A DNA stretch of 64,000 nt from contig MHRT01000005.1 in the NCBI GenBank assembly GCA_001821055.1, positions 43,533-107,532 of the forward strand, written 5' to 3'. Made by a program: the position numbers and the translations under genes. Positions 6,575 through 52,354 of the stretch are shown here, piece by piece. Source of the stretch: Candidatus Taylorbacteria bacterium RIFCSPHIGHO2_12_FULL_45_16 (GTDB lineage Bacteria > Patescibacteriota > Minisyncoccia > Phycocordibacterales > PALSA-1337). The notes beneath the pieces are model-generated. The model searched no databases. It saw nothing but the letters and a program-made list of their open reading frames with translations, and was not told the DNA's origin. Position 1 is the stretch's first letter. The number at the start of each line of letters is the position of its first letter.

Positions 6575-6700
6575 TTTTAGTAATTAGTTGTTGGTTTTCT
6601 ATTTATCAGTTACCAGTATACTAGTTCACCGGCAACCAGCAACACCTTAGCATTTTTTGCCATTTTTTCAAAAGATGATAGGATACAGAACACGCATCAA

Positions 6701-6772
6701 GGCCCTATCGTCTAACGGCTAGGACAACGGGTTTTCAATCCGTTAATCGGGGTTCGATTCCCCGTAGGGCTA
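6701..6772 (+). tRNA. tRNA-Glu (anticodon TTC)
   Basis: Acceptor GGCCCTA/TAGGGCT, anticodon stem ACGGG/TCCGT with loop TTTTCAA, T-arm GGGG/CCCC with loop TTCGATT. Confidence 0.8.
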
Positions 6773-6802
6773 CAAGGGAAGACCTGCAATCATCCTGTCA
6801 CT

Positions 6803-7360
6803 GTGGTTACAAAAATGAAATACAAGAAATTAATGGCGATTGGGTTTGTCGTATTTGTGTTGTTTGTATCTGGTTCTTACATCATTTATGCTGTGACTGT
6901 CATATCGATTGATGAAAATACTCCTTATCGGGTTGAACGCGTGCTGGATGGGGATACTTTCATGGTAAAAATTGGTTGGCACGATGTTACTATCCGGATG
7001 CTAGGCATTGATACGCCAGAGACTGTTGATCCAAGAAAGCTGGTACAGTGTTATGGAAAAGAGGCATCTGATGAGACCAAGAGTCTTTTGACTGGCCAAA
7101 AAGTCAGGTTGAAACTGAATCCAAACAGAGAAGAGAGGGATAGATACGGACGCTATTTGGCCTATGTGTATATGAATGGCGCAAACAATTTGTTTGTGAA
7201 TGAATTTCTGCTGGAAAATGGTTATGCGCATGAATATACCTATGGTAAGCCGTACATGTATCAGAAAGAGTTTAGGGAGATCGAAAAAACTGCTAAAGAG
7301 GCGGGGAAGGGTTTGTGGGGAGGGTGTGAGATTACAAGCTCTAAACCCGCAAAGCTATGA
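6803..7360 (+). CDS. Thermonuclease (staphylococcal nuclease/SNase homologue), membrane-anchored or secreted
   Basis: N-terminal TM segment. Motifs DGDTF, GIDTPE and RDRYGRYLAYV are typical of SNase. Confidence 0.8.
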   Translation: MVTKMKYKKLMAIGFVVFVLFVSGSYIIYAVTVISIDENTPYRVERVLDGDTFMVKIGWHDVTIRMLGIDTPETVDPRKLVQCYGKEASDETKSLLTGQKVRLKLNPNREERDRYGRYLAYVYMNGANNLFVNEFLLENGYAHEYTYGKPYMYQKEFREIEKTAKEAGKGLWGGCEITSSKPAKL

Positions 7361-44479: not shown

Positions 44480-45634
44480 TCACACGACATTTTCTTGACC
44501 GGTATGTTTGCCGTATGTCACCAACCAATCCAACAAAACATCAAGTGGAGTTTGTGCTATGCAGACATGCCTATCGCCACCGCCGTAATAGACGAGCAAT
44601 TGGCCGTCGCGTACGATGGCGCCAGATGCATAAACAATGCCCGGTTTGCCATCGTTCTCATAGCACATGTCCGGAGTCAGTATCGGTTCCGGCGCGCGAT
44701 ACAAGATTCGCGTCGGGTCGTTGGCATCCAAGATCATCGCGCCAAGTTTGTATTTGTGAAATTCTTTTCTATCCACTGCGTGATACAAAAGCAACCAACC
44801 TCGGTTGGTTTTTATCGGCGGTGGACCGGCACCACGCAAGATATTATCCCAAAATCCTTCACGGCCGGGTTGAGGCCCTTGCGGACGGGAGCTCTTGATG
44901 TGAGGAAATGTCTCATCCAAATCGTCCACGTATTCAATCATTATTTTCGGAACAATACCATGCAATATGGCGTATTTACCATTGACTTTTTCTGGAAAAA
45001 GTACCCAGTTTTTGTGGACTTCGTCGGGAGGCGATATGAGTCTAGGCTTCTTCCAATTCCACCGCTCTTTTTTCAAATCTTTGACGGCGATTGAGGTAAG
45101 TCCGATGCGTACCGAACCCCAGCCTTGGAAAGCGGTATAAGTCATGTAAACGCGACTGCCGATTTTCACGGCACGAGGATCTTCGTGGCCACCCCAGCCG
45201 CCGCCGGATGTGTATATGGCGGGATTGTATTGAGCGGGACCTGAAGATTTTTTTTCAGAGGGATTTTTTTCTTCAACATGTGGCTGATATACTGGGAAAG
45301 GCGAACGCCTATCAAAGTTCATGCCGTCTATGCTTGAGGCGTGTCCGATATTAGAAAGTCCGTTGTTTCCGATTGCCCGATACAGCAGATGAACGCGTCC
45401 CTCATCGTCTTCTATCGCCGTCGGATTGAATGTGCCGTTGGTTTCCCATTCTTGATGTGGTCGCGGTGACATTATGGGATTCGCGTGGTGGCGTTTTATC
45501 TTATGACTAACAGGAGCGTCGCCTTCCTCCCGTTTTTTTCTTAACAAAATAAGATAACAGACAATTCCGATGACGATTACTATCGCAAGAGACAGTGCGG
45601 TGACAAATATGATGTGGTCAGTTGTAATGTTCAT
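44480..45634 (-). CDS. GH130 (DUF377) beta-mannoside phosphorylase-like protein with an N-terminal TM anchor
   Basis: TM helix followed by NPIMSP...GTFNPTAI...LLYRA, and HEDPRAV. Confidence 0.75.
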   Translation of the reverse strand: MNITTDHIIFVTALSLAIVIVIGIVCYLILLRKKREEGDAPVSHKIKRHHANPIMSPRPHQEWETNGTFNPTAIEDDEGRVHLLYRAIGNNGLSNIGHASSIDGMNFDRRSPFPVYQPHVEEKNPSEKKSSGPAQYNPAIYTSGGGWGGHEDPRAVKIGSRVYMTYTAFQGWGSVRIGLTSIAVKDLKKERWNWKKPRLISPPDEVHKNWVLFPEKVNGKYAILHGIVPKIMIEYVDDLDETFPHIKSSRPQGPQPGREGFWDNILRGAGPPPIKTNRGWLLLYHAVDRKEFHKYKLGAMILDANDPTRILYRAPEPILTPDMCYENDGKPGIVYASGAIVRDGQLLVYYGGGDRHVCIAQTPLDVLLDWLVTYGKHTGQENVV

Positions 45635-45666
45635 TGGTGTTCTGCGTAAAAATATTTAAGACAAAT

Positions 45667-46020
45667 TTAAGTGATTCTACCGTACTTGTCTTCCAGTCTT
45701 ATTATGTCTTTCTCGTCAAATTCTCCGAATGACAGTTCGAGGATGATCAACTCCATCACGCCACCCATAAGACGATGGTTTATTCCTTTTGGCACAAATT
45801 GATCCACTCCGGCTTTGAGCGATACGTGATCATTGTCAACGATGGCGGTGCCGTCGCCTGAGATAACATGCCAGAACTCATCGCGATTACGATGATACTG
45901 CAAACTCAATTCTTCGTGGGGTTTGATACTCAAGATTTTCACCATTGACGGTCTGTCGTTGGAAACCCAAAGTTCCTCTCCCCATGGTCGCTCTTCGCGA
46001 TATGGTTTAGGGGTTTGCAT
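45667..46020 (-). CDS. Cupin-domain protein (mannose-6-phosphate isomerase type II C-terminal domain-like)
   Basis: Cupin motifs (HEELSLQYHRNRDEFWHVISG...VPKGINHR). Confidence 0.6.
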   Translation of the reverse strand: MQTPKPYREERPWGEELWVSNDRPSMVKILSIKPHEELSLQYHRNRDEFWHVISGDGTAIVDNDHVSLKAGVDQFVPKGINHRLMGGVMELIILELSFGEFDEKDIIRLEDKYGRIT

Positions 46021-46418
46021 GGCTTTATGTACACCTCATTATACTACAAATATGGGCCTTTAAATTGGTGTTTTATATGTGTATAACTTTTGCGGCTTAT
46101 TTTAAGCATTTTTTGATATAATGGGCACATGGAAACAGTGGTTCTAATAATTATAGTTTTTGCGATTCTTTTTTACAGTTCTCGTCCGAAATCAGATAAA
46201 AAAGAAGTCGGTAAAGGCGATAGAAATAAGGAGGTGAAACGATAAGATGAAGTTCGTATCTAATTTCTTGGCTCCGCGTTGCGAATGAAATATCTACCTA
46301 CTTTAAGACCACAAAGGAGTACCATTACATCTCAAATCTAAAGGATGGTATCTACGAACTTACTCGGCCGACAAGCGAGCAGTTAACAAGGGTTTAAGAG
46401 ATGTTGGCATCTGTCCAT

Positions 46419-46448
46419 TTGACATCCTATACCCCCTAGGGGTATCAT
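46419..46448 (+). promoter_or_regulatory. csoR-cop promoter (TTGACA-18-TATCAT) overlapping a near-perfect palindrome, ATACCCCCTAGGGGTAT (46429-46445), taken to be the CsoR operator
   Basis: Core CCCCTAGGGG is a perfect palindrome flanked by ATAC/GTAT. It resembles known GC-rich CsoR operators. ATG at 46455, 6 nt after the -10. Confidence 0.6.
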
Positions 46449-46454
46449 GTAGGC

Positions 46455-46721
46455 ATGAGACAATATATCAAAACAAAAGCTATTCGCCGATTAAAAATTG
46501 TTGAGGGACAAATTAGGGGACTTCAAAATATGGTTGAAGATGAGAAGTACTGTATCGATATTATTACCCAGGCATCTGCTATTAAAGAAGCCCTTACAGG
46601 AATTGAGAACTTGGTCCTTGAAAACCATCTTTCTACCCACGTAGTTCACCAGATGAAGCATGGAAGTGAAAAGAAAGCTGTTGATGAGATCCTTAAGGTT
46701 TATAAGCTAAAGCGTAAATAA
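46455..46721 (+). CDS. csoR: CsoR/RcnR-family copper-sensing transcriptional repressor
   Basis: RLKRIEGQIRGLQNMVEDEKYCIDIITQ...H...H pattern of the CsoR (DUF156) family. Confidence 0.8.
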   Translation: MRQYIKTKAIRRLKIVEGQIRGLQNMVEDEKYCIDIITQASAIKEALTGIENLVLENHLSTHVVHQMKHGSEKKAVDEILKVYKLKRK

Positions 46722-46724
46722 AAT

Positions 46725-49052
46725 ATGAATCATCCTACCAAAACCTACAGGGTAAAAGGAATGCACTGCGCTTCGTGCGCTGGTATAATTGAAAAAACTT
46801 TCAAGAAAACCGAGGGAGTCCACTCTGCTGAAGTAAACTATGGGACCGAAAAAGCAAAAGTAGCTTTTGATGAATCGAAAACAAGCGCACAGGAGCTTTC
46901 AAAAAAAATAGAACCATTGGGCTACTCCCTAGCCCTGAACCAGGAGACTTCACATGAACATGGTGGCCATTCAGCAGAGGAGATGGGTATGTCTGCAGAC
47001 GAGCATGCGACTCACCTCGGAATCGGTCAATCAAAGAAAGAGAAGCTTGCTGAAGTCGCTGATATGAAGACAAAGGTACTCTCTGCCATTCCTTTGGCAA
47101 TTTTCGCAGCACTAGTCATGGGATGGGACATTCTGGCTCAATATGGAGTTGTGGGAGAAATGAGTTATACGATCAAAGAATTTATTCACCATCTTTTGCC
47201 TATACTGGCGGCATACATACTCTTTGTTGTTGGAAAACCCTATCTCATGGGCTTCTACCGCTTTCTCCGCTATGGCAAGGCTAATATGGATACCCTCATA
47301 GGTATCGGAACTACTGCAGCATTTTTATACAGCTTTGCCGTTACCGCTTTTGAGGAAGCGCTTCGACCTTTTATAAATGTTGATTACCAATACTACGACG
47401 TTACCATCGTGGTGATCACCTTTATAGCACTCGGCAAATATCTTGAAGCGCGATCGAAAATAAAGACCGGAGATGCTATTGAAAAGCTTCTTAATCTCCA
47501 GGCTAAAACAGCACTTGTTGTTCGAGATGGAAAAGAAGTAGAAATTTCAGTGAATGAAGTAAAACATGGAGATCTCATTATTGTTAAGCCAGGAGCAAAG
47601 ATTCCAGTAGATGGAATTATTACCGAAGGATCCTCATTTATCGATGAGTCTATGATTACCGGAGAGCCGATGCCTGCACAAAAAAAGATCGGAGACAGTG
47701 TTGTGTCCGGAACAATCAACACTAGTGGCTCGTTTACATTTAAGGCAACCAAGGTCGGTTCAGAGACTCTTCTCGCTCAGATTATAAAAATGGTTGAGGA
47801 TGCCCAGGGTAGTAAAGCGCCAATTCAAGCACTGGCAGACAAGATTTCATCTATCTTCGTGCCTATCGTTCTGGTGATTGCATTTCTAACACTCGGAGCA
47901 TGGCTTATTATTGGGTCCCAGTATCTAGGCTTCTCTCAAGCGCTTTCATTTGGCCTCGTTTCTTTTGTAGGTATTCTCGTTATTGCTTGTCCATGCGCTC
48001 TCGGCCTCGCTACTCCAACAGCGATCATAGTAGGAGTTGGTAAGGGAGCCAAGGAAGGCATTCTCATCAAAGATGCAGCAACACTTGAAAAGCTTCATAA
48101 GGTAAATACGGTTGTGGTTGATAAGACGGGGACCATTACTAAAGGCAAGCCAACACTTGTAGATATTCAAAACCTTTCTGATTTAAAAGATGATGAACTT
48201 GTATCAGTACTTGCTTCGCTTGAGAAAAAATCAGAACATCCAATCGCACACGCAATTGTAAGCTACGCTAAGGAAAAGAATATCTCGGTATCAGAAGTGT
48301 CTAATTTTGAAGGTATTCAAGGTAAGGGTCTCAAGGGAACAATTAAGGGTGCTGAATATTTTGTTGGTAACGCAAAGCTTGTAAGTGATCTCGGACTTTC
48401 TTTTGATGTAGCCAAGCTCAATGAGTCTACTTCTCAGGGTAAAACGCCAGTCATTCTCGCTAGTAAAGAAAAGGTTCTTGGTTTTGTAATGGTGGCAGAT
48501 GAAATAAAAGCTGAATCAATAGAAGCGGTGAGAGATCTTCACGCACTGGGAATCAAAGTGATCATGCTCACCGGCGATGATGAAAAAGCGGCAAAATATA
48601 TCGCATCACTTGTCGGCATCGATGATGTGGTTGCTCATGTGCTGCCACAGGATAAGCTTGAAAAGATAAAAGAATTACAGTTACAAAGAAAGATCGTGGC
48701 TATGGCAGGAGATGGTGTGAACGACGCTCCTGCACTTGCACAAGCTGATGTGGGTATTGCCATGGGGACCGGAACTGATGTGGCGATTGAATCAGCAGGT
48801 ATTACGCTTCTTGGTGGAGATATTTCAAAGCTCGTCAAGGCAATCAAGCTATCGAAAATTACCATGCGTGGAATCAAGCAAAATCTTTTCTGGGCATTTA
48901 TTTACAACATATTCGGCATACCTCTTGCAGCTGGAGTTTTCTATCCTATTTCTGGATGGTTACTTAATCCTGTATTTGCTGGTTTTGCCATGGCCATGTC
49001 GTCGGTGTCAGTCGTATCGAACTCGCTTCGCATCAAAGGTAAAAAACTATAA
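46725..49052 (+). CDS. copA: Copper-translocating P1B-type ATPase
   Basis: N-terminal HMA GMHCASCAG. TM CPC motif (CPCALGLATP). DKTGTIT phosphorylation site. GDGVNDAPAL motif. Confidence 0.9.
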   Translation: MNHPTKTYRVKGMHCASCAGIIEKTFKKTEGVHSAEVNYGTEKAKVAFDESKTSAQELSKKIEPLGYSLALNQETSHEHGGHSAEEMGMSADEHATHLGIGQSKKEKLAEVADMKTKVLSAIPLAIFAALVMGWDILAQYGVVGEMSYTIKEFIHHLLPILAAYILFVVGKPYLMGFYRFLRYGKANMDTLIGIGTTAAFLYSFAVTAFEEALRPFINVDYQYYDVTIVVITFIALGKYLEARSKIKTGDAIEKLLNLQAKTALVVRDGKEVEISVNEVKHGDLIIVKPGAKIPVDGIITEGSSFIDESMITGEPMPAQKKIGDSVVSGTINTSGSFTFKATKVGSETLLAQIIKMVEDAQGSKAPIQALADKISSIFVPIVLVIAFLTLGAWLIIGSQYLGFSQALSFGLVSFVGILVIACPCALGLATPTAIIVGVGKGAKEGILIKDAATLEKLHKVNTVVVDKTGTITKGKPTLVDIQNLSDLKDDELVSVLASLEKKSEHPIAHAIVSYAKEKNISVSEVSNFEGIQGKGLKGTIKGAEYFVGNAKLVSDLGLSFDVAKLNESTSQGKTPVILASKEKVLGFVMVADEIKAESIEAVRDLHALGIKVIMLTGDDEKAAKYIASLVGIDDVVAHVLPQDKLEKIKELQLQRKIVAMAGDGVNDAPALAQADVGIAMGTGTDVAIESAGITLLGGDISKLVKAIKLSKITMRGIKQNLFWAFIYNIFGIPLAAGVFYPISGWLLNPVFAGFAMAMSSVSVVSNSLRIKGKKL

Positions 49053-49069
49053 TCAACAAGACCAACAAT

Positions 49070-50104
49070 ATGAATCCACAAACTCTTAAAACATATACAT
49101 TCCACGTCCACGGCATGCACTGCAACGCCTGCGTCCTTATGATCGAAAGCGAGCTAGGTGATCTACCGAATATTACTCATGTTAAATCAAGCCTCAAGAA
49201 TCACTCGGCAGAGGTCACCGGAGACTTTGGCGATAAGACCCTGGAGCAGATCGCGGAAGAGCTTACTATTCCGCTGAAGTCACACGGTTACACTGTTTCA
49301 GTTGAAAAACAGCAGCACAATGCCACATGGGGAGACTTCAAGATCGCTGTCCCGATAGCGCTCGGCTTCGCAGTACTCTTTGTAGTACTACAGAAAATGG
49401 GGATCGTGAATCTCGTCAGTGCCGGTAATGTCACCTACGGCACAGCGTTCGTCATTGGCATCATTGCCTCGCTCTCAACGTGCATGGCAGTTGTCGGTGG
49501 ACTGGTCCTTTCCATGTCTGCCACCTTCGCCAAAGAAGGGGATAAGGTACGGCCTCAACTCATGTTCCATGGCGGCCGAATAGTCTCATTCTTTATTCTT
49601 GGAGGCGTTATCGGGACGATCGGTGCCGCATTCACGCTCAACACTTCTGCAACGTTTATCTTGAGCCTGATTATCGGTATCGTCATGCTCATTCTCGGTA
49701 TCAATCTTCTTGACACCTTCCATTGGGCCAAGAAGCTTCAGCCATCAATGCCGAAGTTCATCGCCAAGCATGCTCACGGTGTCTCAAAATTCAATCACAC
49801 ACTTACGCCGATCCTTGTCGGTGTCGCCACTTTTTTCTTGCCGTGCGGATTCACTCAATCAATGCAACTCTATACGTTAACCACAGGAAGTTTCCTTCAA
49901 GGCGGACTCACCATGCTTGCATTTGCACTTGGCACACTACCGGTTCTTGCTCTGATTAGCTTCAGCTCATTCAGCATCCAAAAGAGCTCAAAGGCAGGGA
50001 TCTTCTTCAAGACGGCCGGACTGATCGTCATCATGTTTGCGCTGTTTAATCTTGTCAATAGCTTGGTGGTGATCGGTGTCATACCGCCGCTGTTCAACTT
50101 CTAG
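49070..50104 (+). CDS. HMA (heavy-metal-associated) domain fused to a multi-TM domain (DsbD_2/CcdA-like, Cys within a TM segment)
   Basis: GMHCNACV HMA motif. About six hydrophobic helices. FFLPCGFTQ. Confidence 0.55.
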   Translation: MNPQTLKTYTFHVHGMHCNACVLMIESELGDLPNITHVKSSLKNHSAEVTGDFGDKTLEQIAEELTIPLKSHGYTVSVEKQQHNATWGDFKIAVPIALGFAVLFVVLQKMGIVNLVSAGNVTYGTAFVIGIIASLSTCMAVVGGLVLSMSATFAKEGDKVRPQLMFHGGRIVSFFILGGVIGTIGAAFTLNTSATFILSLIIGIVMLILGINLLDTFHWAKKLQPSMPKFIAKHAHGVSKFNHTLTPILVGVATFFLPCGFTQSMQLYTLTTGSFLQGGLTMLAFALGTLPVLALISFSSFSIQKSSKAGIFFKTAGLIVIMFALFNLVNSLVVIGVIPPLFNF

Positions 50105-50130
50105 TATACTGTTAATCACGTCCTGTAATT

Positions 50131-50520
50131 ATGAAAGCAACTATTATTTCAATTGTCGTGGCAGTGATCCTCATCGGAGGGGCTTTTGTGCTGGCCCGGG
50201 GCGGAGACAATGATGCTTCGACTGTTCCGACAAATAACGTCACGATCGTTGATGGAAAACAGATTATAGAAATCAATGCCAAAGGCGGCTATCAGCCAAG
50301 AAAAAGTATTGCCAAGGCAGGTATCCCTACAATTATTCGATTCAACACAAAGGGAACTTTTGATTGTTCATCCTCAGTTCGTATTCCGAGCTTGAATATA
50401 AGTAAGCTGCTGCCTCAATCAGGAGCAACTGATATAGACATTGGTAGCGGTCAGCTCGGCACGCTCCAGGGATCATGCGGGATGGGGATGTATCCGTTCG
50501 AGGTGGAGTTTCAGAGTTAG
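50131..50520 (+). CDS. Membrane-anchored cupredoxin-like domain protein (putative copper-binding partner encoded directly downstream of the cop ATPase operon)
   Basis: N-terminal TM. Beta-rich domain with FDCSSS...GSCGMGMYPFE. Tight operon spacing. Confidence 0.4.
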   Translation: MKATIISIVVAVILIGGAFVLARGGDNDASTVPTNNVTIVDGKQIIEINAKGGYQPRKSIAKAGIPTIIRFNTKGTFDCSSSVRIPSLNISKLLPQSGATDIDIGSGQLGTLQGSCGMGMYPFEVEFQS

Positions 50521-50535
50521 TTCATCAGGGCCGAT

Positions 50536-51027
50536 TTACATCTTCCGGCTGTCGTAAGCCCAGTGCAGAACAGCCTGTCTTTGGGCGGGACGGCAGGTCA
50601 GGTCTTTCGGCCGACAATTCTTCTTGATCTGTGATATATGACGGCTGATGGCTTTCCACCGCTTGATCTGGAGCTCATCTTCGCCTGGCAAGCGTCTACC
50701 CATATGGTAGCGGCAATACCACTGGAACCAACCGCGAGGGTCGTGCTTCTCATTGATCCAGCCTTTTTCCTGCCACACCTTGAGTGGCTGACTGGCATGC
50801 TTATGAAAAAAGTTGAGCGTGTCATCGTGATGTTCGGGCGACAGCTTGGCGCGAGTGAACCAGCTTTTCGGAAACTCTTTCCTGCAGTCGGTCATGTACT
50901 TGCCGCCAAATACGCCAAGTGCGAGCATTTCCCTGGGGGTGAGTTCCGGTTTGAAACTCGGGTCAAAGTTTCGTCCTACCGGCTCGGTGAGGTCGTACTT
51001 GTAACCCCTTTGAAATTTGTCGTTCAC
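50536..51027 (-). CDS. Conserved hypothetical protein, rich in Trp/His/Cys/Arg. GC appears high for this region. Family not recognised.
   Basis: 163 aa ORF. Several clustered Cys/His residues (CRYH, CRP). Confidence 0.4.
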   Translation of the reverse strand: MNDKFQRGYKYDLTEPVGRNFDPSFKPELTPREMLALGVFGGKYMTDCRKEFPKSWFTRAKLSPEHHDDTLNFFHKHASQPLKVWQEKGWINEKHDPRGWFQWYCRYHMGRRLPGEDELQIKRWKAISRHISQIKKNCRPKDLTCRPAQRQAVLHWAYDSRKM

Positions 51028-51066
51028 TGTTATGGTCTTTTTTGTTATGGGTGTTTGTATGGGTGT

Positions 51067-51567
51067 TTAATTGAGAATCCAAATAGTGTAGTTCAAATAT
51101 GCGGCGAAACTTACCCAAAGGATATATGGCGCAAGAAGCCAAGCGGCTGGTTTGGAAATTTTATAAAAGGCAACCATCGTGGCGAAGATGGCAAGCCAGA
51201 GGAATACAATCTCCACGAGCGCACCACCCGGGCTGTGCAAGCCGAAGAAGATAATCGACCAAAGTGTATTCAAAACCAGTTGGCCGAGGAATATACCAAG
51301 AGCGATTTTGACATCTCTGCGATCTAGTCCCTTTTTCCAGACCAGGAATGCGGCGATACCCATAAGCACAAAGAGTGTCGTCCAGACCGGACCAAATATC
51401 CACGCTGGAGGATTGATGGCCGGCTTCACGATCCCTGCGTACCAGCCAGCGATCGAGGGTGTGGTAAACACTGAACCGATGATGCCAGCGAGCTCGGAGA
51501 CTACGATGGCGATGATGAGTTTGAGGGTGTTACTGATTTTCATGACCTTGGGTTCAAGTTTGAACAT
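51067..51567 (-). CDS. tspO: TspO/MBR family tryptophan-rich sensory protein
   Basis: Five TM segments with the conserved WYAGI..P...PP.WIFGPVWT, NTLW and LNYTIW motifs. Confidence 0.8.
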   Translation of the reverse strand: MFKLEPKVMKISNTLKLIIAIVVSELAGIIGSVFTTPSIAGWYAGIVKPAINPPAWIFGPVWTTLFVLMGIAAFLVWKKGLDRRDVKIALGIFLGQLVLNTLWSIIFFGLHSPGGALVEIVFLWLAIFATMVAFYKISKPAAWLLAPYILWVSFAAYLNYTIWILN

Positions 51568-51769
51568 GAACTAGCAATTGCTTTGCCAAGCCCGTCGCTA
51601 GCTCCTAGTATAATTATTTTTTTCACAACTAAATTATACCAAAGTTCGGAATTATTTTCTTGCTCCATATACTGGACGAGTTCTGAGCCATTTAAAAATA
51701 TAAAACCGCCCCGCAAGATGACACTTGCGACAGGCGGTTATTGCTTAACCTCGACTTAGGGTCAAAAAA

Positions 51770-52354
51770 ATGGTAAATTCATATTACATGGAACGTTCTG
51801 ATGAACAATTAATTTCCGAGTATCTTGATGGCGATGAAAAGGCGCTAGGTACACTTGTCGAACGGCATCTAACTAATGCCTACAATTTTGCATTGAAACT
51901 CGTGAATGATAGTCAGGCCGCAAATGACATAACTCAAGAGGCATTCGTTAAAGCGTGGAAAAATATCCGAGGATTTAAGCAAGAAAGCACTTTTCAGACG
52001 TGGCTTTTTGCAATCACCAGAAATGTCGCAATCGACTGGCTTAGACGAAGAAAAGAAGTTGTCTTTTCTGCTTTTGAAAATGAACGAGGAGAAAATATGT
52101 TCACTGAAACTCTTGCAGACCAGAGCTTGTTGTCGGATGAACTGTTAGCAAGAGCAGAAGATGTTCGGTTTGTAGAAATACTTTTGGAAGAACTTGATCC
52201 TCTCTACCGCGATGTATTGAAACTTCGATATTCAAGCAATATGACATTTGAGGAGATTGGTGAACTTCTTAAGAGGCCACTTCACACAATTAAAAGCCAG
52301 TATAGAAGGGCGCTCATTGCATTACGCCGATCTCTTGAAGTAAGGCCGATTTAA
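51770..52354 (+). CDS. ECF-subfamily RNA polymerase sigma factor (sigma-70 regions 2 and 4)
   Basis: Region 2 (AYNFALKLVNDSQAANDITQEAFVKAWKNI...FQTWLFAITRNVAIDWLRRR). Region 4 HTH (TFEEIGELLKRPLHTIKSQ). Confidence 0.8.
   Translation: MVNSYYMERSDEQLISEYLDGDEKALGTLVERHLTNAYNFALKLVNDSQAANDITQEAFVKAWKNIRGFKQESTFQTWLFAITRNVAIDWLRRRKEVVFSAFENERGENMFTETLADQSLLSDELLARAEDVRFVEILLEELDPLYRDVLKLRYSSNMTFEEIGELLKRPLHTIKSQYRRALIALRRSLEVRPI

Follow-up and report, generated by a model that had tools for sequence, protein, structure and literature searches.

CsoR/CopA copper efflux under a canonical operator is a known kind of system. The CsoR-box consensus of Corynebacterium glutamicum is ATACCCCnnnGGGGTAT, and a leaderless csoR transcript was mapped in Bradyrhizobium by rapid amplification of cDNA ends (PMC5057107). 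Sensors with the ligand set x-C-H-H are a recognised copper-sensor cluster of the Thermus CsoR type, based on CopA/CopZ neighbourhoods (PMC8643695). HMA-bearing COG2836 proteins lie beside CsoR-regulated copA in gut Firmicutes, as part of the CsoR meta-regulon (PMC4938975). The chaperone CupA is described as confined to a few streptococci (PMC7558416). Here we describe a copper operon from Candidatus Taylorbacteria bacterium RIFCSPHIGHO2_12_FULL_45_16, a member of the Candidate Phyla Radiation (CPR; Patescibacteria). It occupies positions 46419-50520 of the 64,000 nucleotides (nt) that we analysed, a stretch called the window below. It contains csoR, copA, a gene for a membrane protein with HMA and DsbD_2 domains, and a gene for a membrane-anchored CupA-like cupredoxin.

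The operon is of the known CsoR/CopA kind. It is very probably a copper-inducible, self-regulated efflux operon. Added by this analysis are the His-for-Cys ligand set of its sensor, which is shared by 28 CPR homologues, the leaderless promoter geometry, the distribution of the operon as a cassette and the tentative reading of the accessory pair as an outward CupA-type relay. The literature searched contained no dedicated study of CsoR in Patescibacteria. It also contained none of DsbD_2 (PF13386) in connection with copper or of the HMA-DsbD_2 and Cupredoxin_1 pair, and the sole mention was that of COG2836.

The comparison set consisted of 81 csoR loci, namely the window and 80 loci from GTDB species-representative genomes. 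The 80 were the best of more than 590 stretches encoding CsoR relatives, and their CsoR identity was 66-98%. Nearly all are labelled Patescibacteria (Saccharibacteria, Paceibacterota, Taylor-, Nomura-, Kaiser-, Zambryski-, Doudnabacteria and others). A first-pass annotation of the window, made from the letters of the DNA, held that so complete a module stands out in a reduced genome. This view was not borne out. The module is common in CPR, as those stretches and the 1640 CsoR homologues found in a protein search indicate. The gene order in that annotation, csoR-copA-HMA/TM (transmembrane)-cupredoxin with gaps of 30 nt or less, is correct, and the gaps are 3, 17 and 26 nt.

The csoR operator and promoter

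The csoR promoter contains a palindrome between a TTGACA -35 hexamer and a TATCAT -10 hexamer, just before csoR, and each lies where the first-pass annotation had placed it. The -35 hexamer is at 46419-46424 on the plus strand and was read directly. It is part of an 11/12 match to sigma-70, the best on either strand of 45600-51800. The box ATACCCCCTAGGGGTAT is at 46429-46445 and has no strand of its own. It contains perfect 7-nt inverted arms, ATACCCC and GGGGTAT, around the 3-nt spacer CTA, and its three mismatches to its own reverse complement are confined to the spacer. Its core CCCCTAGGGG is likewise a perfect palindrome, as had been noted. The -10 hexamer is at 46443-46448 on the plus strand. 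It starts with the last three bases of the palindrome and overlaps the right arm of the box. The spacer between -35 and -10 is 18 nt long and holds the box. The operator had been proposed to be of CsoR type, and its sequence is identical to the C. glutamicum CsoR-box.

The csoR ATG is at 46455, 6 nt past the -10 and 9 nt past the box. An in-frame TAG lies inside the box ahead of this ATG, and CsoR residues 5-22 are conserved at the protein level. Translation therefore starts at 46455, and an earlier start is excluded. Since the ATG follows the -10 by only 6 nt, the transcript is predicted to be leaderless.

The box is conserved upstream of csoR orthologues. A match of at least 11/14 was present within 120 nt upstream of csoR in 80 of the 81 loci, and it was perfect (14/14) in 67. 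Of 1508 random 120-nt windows drawn from these loci, 2 reached the same match. In 78/81 loci, 9-13 nt separate the end of the box from the csoR ATG. Among the 80 loci with a scored box, 63 have TTGAC[ACGT] at the equivalent -35 place and 77 have a -35 to -10 distance of 15-18 nt. The -10 in all scored loci is the final TAT of the box plus three bases, and reads TATTAT, TATCAT, TATACT or TATAAT. The exception is L019, where the box is perfect but lies 276 nt from csoR, upstream of a small open reading frame (ORF) that precedes the gene. Besides this box, one further copy was found in 645 kb of loci. The arm positions are near-invariant across loci and the 3-nt spacer varies freely, with no compensatory changes in the arms. 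Conserved arms around a variable spacer are the pattern of a protein site and not of an RNA stem.

The fixed promoter position of the box in 78/81 loci supports repression, autoregulation and a leaderless transcript. Promoter occlusion, autoregulation and leaderless transcription thus appear well supported, as strongly as comparative data allow. Of the regulatory logic proposed in the first-pass annotation, the operator over the -10 and the leaderless four-gene operon are retained, and the C-H-C sensor is replaced by x-C-H-H.

A search for further palindromes had also been proposed, and it was made across the 64 kb of the window. The exact 17-mer is present in a single copy, and the expectation for the pattern, with at most 3 mismatches allowed, is 0.05 matches. 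The sole relaxed match is at 6758, with 2 mismatches. It is the T-arm of a tRNA gene whose end lies at 6700-6775 (GGTTCGATTCCCCGTAGGGCTAC), and it was rejected as a second operator copy. After this gene comes a staphylococcal-nuclease-like ORF (6803-7360). The regulon beyond the operon is not definable from 64 kb.

Four csoR homologues (P0017, P0023, P0108 and P0110) were over-extended upstream through the operator by gene callers. The motif ...TP.GY..GM at their N-termini is what ACCCC-NNN-GGGGTAT and the -10 give when translated. These N-termini are an annotation artefact, and as such they are an independent sign of box conservation.

Six loci (the window, L003, L010, L014, L015 and L016) share a sharply bounded, conserved block of about 130 nt (window 46272-46398) ahead of the csoR promoter, and their sequence further upstream is unrelated. 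One plus-strand frame is open in all six, ending in the window in ...WLRVANEISTYFKTTKEYHYISNLKDGIYELTRPTSEQLTRV*. Variable columns number 14/10/30 by codon position, which is a coding-type constraint. No consistent start codon was found across the six loci, and Pfam searches of the peptide and Rfam searches gave zero matches. This block could be what is left of the 3' end of a gene, or a tiny ORF that travels with the cassette. A strong Shine-Dalgarno sequence in the same region (46231-46289), AAGGAGGTGA, precedes only a 13-codon ORF, MKFVSNFLAPRCE*.

The sensor, the pump and the metal

The csoR gene is at 46455-46721 on the plus strand and encodes 88 amino acids (aa). The protein matches PF02583 over residues 6-83 with E = 2.9e-25 and 88.9 bits, against a cut-off of 22.8. 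Its closest solved structures are 4m1p (1e-15), 4adz, 3aai and 2hh7, all of them CsoRs. By alignment its ligands are C33, H58 and H62, an x-C-H-H set, and its second shell contains Y32 and E78. The latter align with Tyr35 and Glu81 in the second shell of Mycobacterium tuberculosis CsoR. All five residues are invariant in 28 aligned CPR homologues. Thermus CsoR (3AAI) shares the C-H-H set.

The first-pass annotation had tied copper sensing to a Cys/His/Cys triad. Cys33 and His58 are present, and the third (Z) position is His62, so the protein departs from the canonical x-C-H-C motif of BsCsoR and MtCsoR. Copper sensing is not overturned by this, because x-C-H-H is a recognised copper cluster and the protein shows the marks of such sensors, namely the ligand set, a Tyr and a Glu in the second shell and a P1B-1 CopA as neighbour (PMC8643695, PMC11672702). 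The other family motifs are absent. The Y and Z positions are both His, unlike CstR (x-C-x-C), and residue 2 is Arg, unlike FrmR (Pro2-C-H-x). The NCBIfam FrmR model gave 38.2 bits against a cut-off of 133. The pairwise scores of the window CsoR are 60.7 bits to Geobacillus and 52.9 bits to Streptomyces, both C-H-C, and 47.9 bits to Thermus. Because the C-H-C CsoRs from Firmicutes and Actinobacteria score above the Thermus protein, the Cys-to-His change may have arisen independently of Thermus, judging by pairwise scores only.

The copA gene is at 46725-49052 on the plus strand and encodes 775 aa with HMA, E1-E2_ATPase and Hydrolase domains (Pfam). CopA contains one N-terminal HMA domain and matches the Cu-ATPase model TIGR01511 with 617 bits, against a cut-off of 397. 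Its motifs are CASC at 15, TGE at 312, CPCALGLATP at 422, DKTGT at 466, SEHP at 503, GDGVND at 662, YNIFGIP at 727 and MAMSS at 756. The P1B-1 signature is complete, with CPC-x6-P in TM4, YN-x4-P in TM5, M-xx-SS in TM6 and the CxxC HMA. CopA is a predicted P1B-1 Cu(I)-exporting ATPase.

Some points weigh against a copper-inducible, self-regulated operon. The third ligand column is Cys in Geobacillus, Streptomyces and M. tuberculosis CsoR, and it is His62 here. A review considers that a Cys-to-His substitution may raise metal promiscuity and that the Cu(I) specificity of x-C-H-H sensors is 'not yet unequivocally evaluated' (PMC11672702). For Thermus CsoR, binding of several metals has been reported, and its low selectivity is ascribed to His70 and His5 (PMC5057107). 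CPR CsoRs are known from sequence, and binding to the box and a response to Cu(I) are predictions. The start of the csoR transcript is likewise predicted, from geometry. No intrinsic terminator was predicted after 50520, between the convergent genes.

With His as the third ligand, the sensor might instead respond to Ni(II) or Co(II), as RcnR does, or to a broad set of metals (Zn, Cd, Ag and Cu), and the operon would then serve a general response to soft or divalent metals. RcnR has H-C-H-H, and its NCBIfam model gave a sub-threshold match of 44.8 bits against a cut-off of 138. However, the N-terminus reads MRQYIK and the first 57 residues contain no His, so that the protein lacks the 'W' ligand of RcnR. 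Among solved structures its nearest relatives are Cu(I) CsoRs, the operator is a CsoR-box and not an RcnR-type site, and CopA carries the full Cu(I)/Ag(I) signature. All gene classes behind the sensor in the 80 loci are copper-associated. We consider a sensor that is not copper-specific quite unlikely. The palindrome itself might also be a chance GC-rich (guanine- and cytosine-rich) repeat or an RNA hairpin, such as an attenuator or a terminator of an upstream transcript, and its arms could in principle pair as a 7-bp stem. It has no T-tract after it, and a search of 45900-46800 against Rfam gave zero matches. So few matches are expected by chance in the window, and the register of the box relative to -35, -10 and ATG is so constant across loci, that the comparative data, with the arm and spacer pattern given above, appear to have effectively refuted this explanation.

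The copper-inducible, self-regulated operon would work as follows. At low copper, CsoR on the ATACCCC-N3-GGGGTAT box would fill the spacer of the sole promoter, overlap the -10 and exclude RNA polymerase. Cu(I) would bind at Cys33, His58 and His62 across the dimer interface, coupled via Tyr32 and Glu78, and this would free CsoR from the DNA. A leaderless mRNA, starting from or next to the csoR AUG, would then cover the csoR, copA, HMA-DsbD_2 and cupredoxin genes. CopA would pump Cu(I) out of the cytoplasm.

The accessory pair

The third gene is at 49070-50104 on the plus strand and encodes a 344-aa protein. The first-pass annotation had marked the products at 49070 and 50131 for annotation with profile models. 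The searches gave HMA and DsbD_2 for the former and Cupredoxin_1 for the latter (Pfam). The same annotation called both accessory genes less well characterised, which is true only in part. The cupredoxin is a CupA homologue with the full ligand motif, and the HMA/TM protein has what appears to be a CcdA/DsbD-like core, which is often fused to a cupredoxin.

The 344-aa protein matches DsbD_2 with 3.9e-33 (115 bits) and HMA with 1.6e-11. It contains an HMA domain with the motif GMHCNAC, one linker TM helix and a six-TM DsbD_2 core. Seven TM helices were found by hydropathy and by DSSP of an AlphaFold2 model, and the K/R-rich loops are on the HMA side. By the same two methods Cys138 is in core TM1 and Cys259 is in core TM4 (LPCGF). 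In CcdA and DsbD, the first and fourth core helices hold the redox-active Cys pair. DsbD_TM (PF02683) is not matched by the protein, and one relative gave 26.6 bits against a cut-off of 27.1. NCBIfam gave only HMA-type matches, with MerTP sub-threshold and to the HMA part. An exhaustive search found 4892 relatives at E <= 0.001 among representatives of 50%-identity clusters. The counts of fusions and Cys motifs below refer to the best 150 of these 4892, and proteins P0406, P0424, P0478, P0493 and P0532 are relatives of the 344-aa protein. Both membrane Cys motifs are kept in 125/150 representatives, and 100 of these 125 contain an N-terminal CxxC (GMxCxxC HMA).

The fourth gene is at 50131-50520 on the plus strand and encodes a 129-aa cupredoxin. 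It contains a TM segment at residues 3-21 and the putative ligands C79 and C116-G-M118-G-M120. Its closest solved relative by sequence is Streptococcus pneumoniae CupA (2MRY/4F2E, E = 2e-6). Cys79 and Cys116-x-Met118-x-Met120 align with Cys74 and Cys111-x-Met113-x-Met115 of CupA, and they are invariant in 27 homologues. This ligand set is the full signature that defines CupA (PMC5552934). The domain was modelled by AlphaFold with a predicted local distance difference test (pLDDT) score of 70-92. The top Foldseek matches are 4f2f, the metal-binding domain of pneumococcal CopA, and 4f2e, CupA. Template-modelling scores were 0.76-0.79, with 0.79 for 4f2e.

The two accessory proteins are joined in other genomes. 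A C-terminal extension of at least 80 aa is present in 43 of the 125 representatives that keep both Cys motifs. In 38 of these 43 it carries a Cys-x-Met-x-Met-type motif and is a Cupredoxin_1 domain. In none of the extensions does a hydrophobic stretch separate the cupredoxin from the final core helix. P0406 (56% identity) corresponds to the two accessory proteins of the window joined, minus the anchor of the cupredoxin. P0532 has the order HMA-DsbD_2-cupredoxin-ScsC_N-DSBA, and ScsC/DsbA is an extracytoplasmic thioredoxin module of copper resistance. P0424 joins the C-terminal half of CopA to DsbD_2 without HMA, which could be a gene-call artefact. The cultured Acetoanaerobium noterae (Clostridia) encodes a 490-aa HMA-DsbD_2-cupredoxin fusion directly upstream of copA. 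Such fusions tie the HMA-DsbD_2 and cupredoxin proteins functionally. The odd number of helices after a cytoplasmic HMA places the cupredoxin of the fusions outside the membrane, and the cupredoxin of the window probably faces outward as well. P0478 and P0493 contain cupredoxins in tandem and end in Cys/Gly-rich tails such as CGCGKTTCDGGCSGGCGR.

We tentatively suggest that the pair is an ATP-free trans-membrane copper/thiol relay, which runs from the HMA CxxC through the core cysteines to an outward CupA-type Cys/Met site. The HMA CxxC, Cys138 and Cys259 in the core and the outer Cys/Met site would form a thiol-lined path. It may pass Cu(I) outward, which is Mer logic reversed. Alternatively, it may keep outer Cu(I)-binding cysteines reduced, by a supply of reducing equivalents, which is the ScsB/ScsC logic (PMC10907172, PMC3322552, PMC8900818). 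The two versions, with Cu(I) or reducing equivalents as cargo, are indistinguishable here, and both cargo and direction are conjectural.

The relay also has points that count against it. The AlphaFold2 model of the 344-aa protein is poor (pLDDT 54), and its alignment is shallow (83-91% identity). A profile search against PDB sequences matched the HMA part only and left the membrane core unmatched. Hydropathy and secondary structure are thus the basis of the helix count. The cupredoxin anchor has one K/R on either side, a weak charge bias that agrees with an outward domain but does not decide it, so the outward orientation rests mainly on the fusions. The CsoR box is absent from the scanned fusion-copA locus of Acetoanaerobium.

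CupA-like proteins of two subtypes are present in CPR. The pneumococcal-like subtype has the C-terminal tail CGMNMFHGK and a K/R-rich flank C-terminal to its anchor, and it is encoded right after csoR and before a copA whose product lacks a metal-binding domain. The window subtype has the tail CGMGMY and an MK-anchor with a neutral or acidic flank. It is always encoded after the HMA-DsbD_2 gene, and its partner CopA contains an HMA domain. Pneumococcal-type CupA genes lie behind the CsoR box in L030 (5282-7566), L047 (5279-7557), L033, L038, L067 and L076. The L030/L047 group, labelled Saccharibacteria, has csoR, then CupA, then a CopA of about 650 aa that lacks an N-terminal metal-binding domain. 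CupA is thus not limited to streptococci, and in these loci its control is by CsoR and not by CopY.

These genuine CupA genes, together with the top sequence and fold matches, the four conserved ligands and the N-terminal TM anchor of the window cupredoxin, are what favours a cytoplasm-facing chaperone that feeds CopA as in S. pneumoniae, with HMA-DsbD_2 as a separate protein. However, the CPR copies of pneumococcal type are a distinct subtype directly before copA, and the window subtype differs from them in place and partner. Matched folds are stressed for the CupA-CopA pair (PMC7558416), and the window CopA has a ferredoxin-like HMA and not a cupredoxin metal-binding domain. The extensions follow the seventh helix of proteins whose N-terminal HMA has no signal peptide, and one of them includes ScsC/DsbA. 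We regard an inward-facing chaperone as unlikely. Another explanation is that the 344-aa protein is a TauE/SafE sulfite exporter or a CcdA of cytochrome c biogenesis that is in the operon by accident. The source annotation is 'sulfite exporter TauE/SafE family protein', and the Pfam title of DsbD_2 is 'Cytochrome C biogenesis protein transmembrane region'. But TauE (PF01925) was not matched, and Pfam at E <= 0.01 returned DsbD_2 and HMA alone. The HMA of most representatives is of the Cu type, and the fusion partners of its relatives are Cu-binding cupredoxins, ScsC and CopA. The gene lies inside the CsoR-controlled cassette across CPR and beside copA in Clostridia. An accidental transporter or biogenesis protein is very improbable.

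Distribution, setting and comparison with known systems

At least 12 loci share the four-gene arrangement. Nucleotide similarity between the window and other CPR metagenome-assembled genomes is 68-82%. It starts at 46418-46433 and ends at 50519-50522, and the flanks are unrelated. Similar loci include L005, L010, L012, L017, L018, L022 and L082. Since the similarity runs from the promoter to the last stop codon and the flanks differ, the operon is a 4.1-kb cassette in varied contexts. In L004, L006, L008, L014, L015 and L016 the copA/HMA-DsbD_2 junction is split by about 1.5 kb. The insert encodes a 205-aa protein with no Pfam match and a DUF305 protein. The GC content of csoR-copA is 0.39-0.43, against 0.46-0.50 in the flanks. 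Low GC was considered as evidence of transfer and is not decisive, as it is matched elsewhere in the window.

In sister CPR loci, genes for DUF305, DUF4396, HMBD-MauE, CupA and CopA lie behind this sensor and box. In nine loci with no copA nearby (L020, L023, L024, L025, L026, L028, L042, L049 and L053), the box and an x-C-H-H CsoR were observed before genes for DUF305, DUF4396 and HMBD-MauE membrane proteins. This suggests a wider CPR copper regulon of poorly characterised proteins.

None of the genes that flank the operon in the window has a link to metals. The minus strand carries a GH130 phosphorylase and a cupin/mannose-6-P isomerase-like gene on the upstream side, and a 163-aa ORF with no Pfam match and then TspO on the downstream side. 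The 163-aa ORF (50536-51027) is convergent with the operon and ends 15 nt past its last stop codon. Pfam and NCBIfam searches of this ORF gave zero matches. A copy that is 64% identical is present in L082, about 4 kb upstream of csoR. TspO recurs near the cassette at different places, upstream in L012 and L013 and downstream in L017. The copA, HMA-DsbD_2 and cupredoxin genes (junctions 46722, 49053 and 50105) each lack a recognisable Shine-Dalgarno sequence.

The circuit follows the textbook CsoR/CopA scheme, with an operator identical to that of Actinobacteria, and is found across CPR. It adds no new regulatory principle. The large natural family of x-C-H-H sensors with one defined operator is suited to testing the effect of the Cys-to-His change on metal selectivity. 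The conserved leaderless promoter architecture is useful in CPR, where transcription signals are poorly known. The HMA-DsbD_2 and cupredoxin pair gives a testable hypothesis for a widespread family, with its thousands of representatives and a fusion in cultured Clostridia. If true, the relay would be a second copper-defence route beside CopA, and 'CupA-like' proteins would exist in inward- and outward-facing versions.

Among known systems, the operon resembles the cop operons of Gram-positive bacteria (Bacillus subtilis copZA, Listeria monocytogenes csoR-copA-copZ and the C. glutamicum regulon). It shares with them the PF02583 four-helix-bundle repressor with its second-shell Tyr and Glu, the GC-rich inverted repeat, which equals that of C. 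glutamicum, the probable autoregulation and a P1B-1 CopA as the main target. Unlike them, it has a His as the third ligand, and csoR is first and apparently leaderless. It also contains no free CopZ, and encodes HMA-DsbD_2 and an anchored cupredoxin instead. With Thermus thermophilus CsoR (3AAI; sequence similarity network cluster 17, a cluster assigned here by motif) it shares the Cys-His-His set and a copA neighbourhood. Unlike Thermus CsoR, the window protein has no counterpart of His5, and it is closer by score to C-H-C CsoRs.

The cupredoxin resembles S. pneumoniae CupA (4F2E, 2MRY, with 4F2F for the CopA domain), but its control would be by CsoR and not by CopY, and its partner CopA has a ferredoxin-like HMA. 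Its gene follows HMA-DsbD_2 and does not precede copA, and the fusions place the domain outside the membrane. The 344-aa protein appears to resemble ScsB/ScsC and DsbD/CcdA in a DsbD-superfamily core, with one Cys each in predicted helices 1 and 4. It is like ScsB/ScsC in that it would be copper-induced and would serve an extracytoplasmic Cys-based Cu(I) partner, and one relative is fused to ScsC_N and DSBA. Unlike ScsB and DsbD, its core is Pfam DsbD_2 and not DsbD_TM, its cytoplasmic partner is an HMA domain and not a thioredoxin, and its outer partner is a cupredoxin and not a thioredoxin fold. In the MerT/MerP/NmerA mercury relay, a soft metal is passed between an HMA CxxC and a membrane-embedded Cys pair. 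Compared with the Mer relay, the accessory pair of the window has a different membrane fold and an HMA that is cytoplasmic, and its direction is likely outward.

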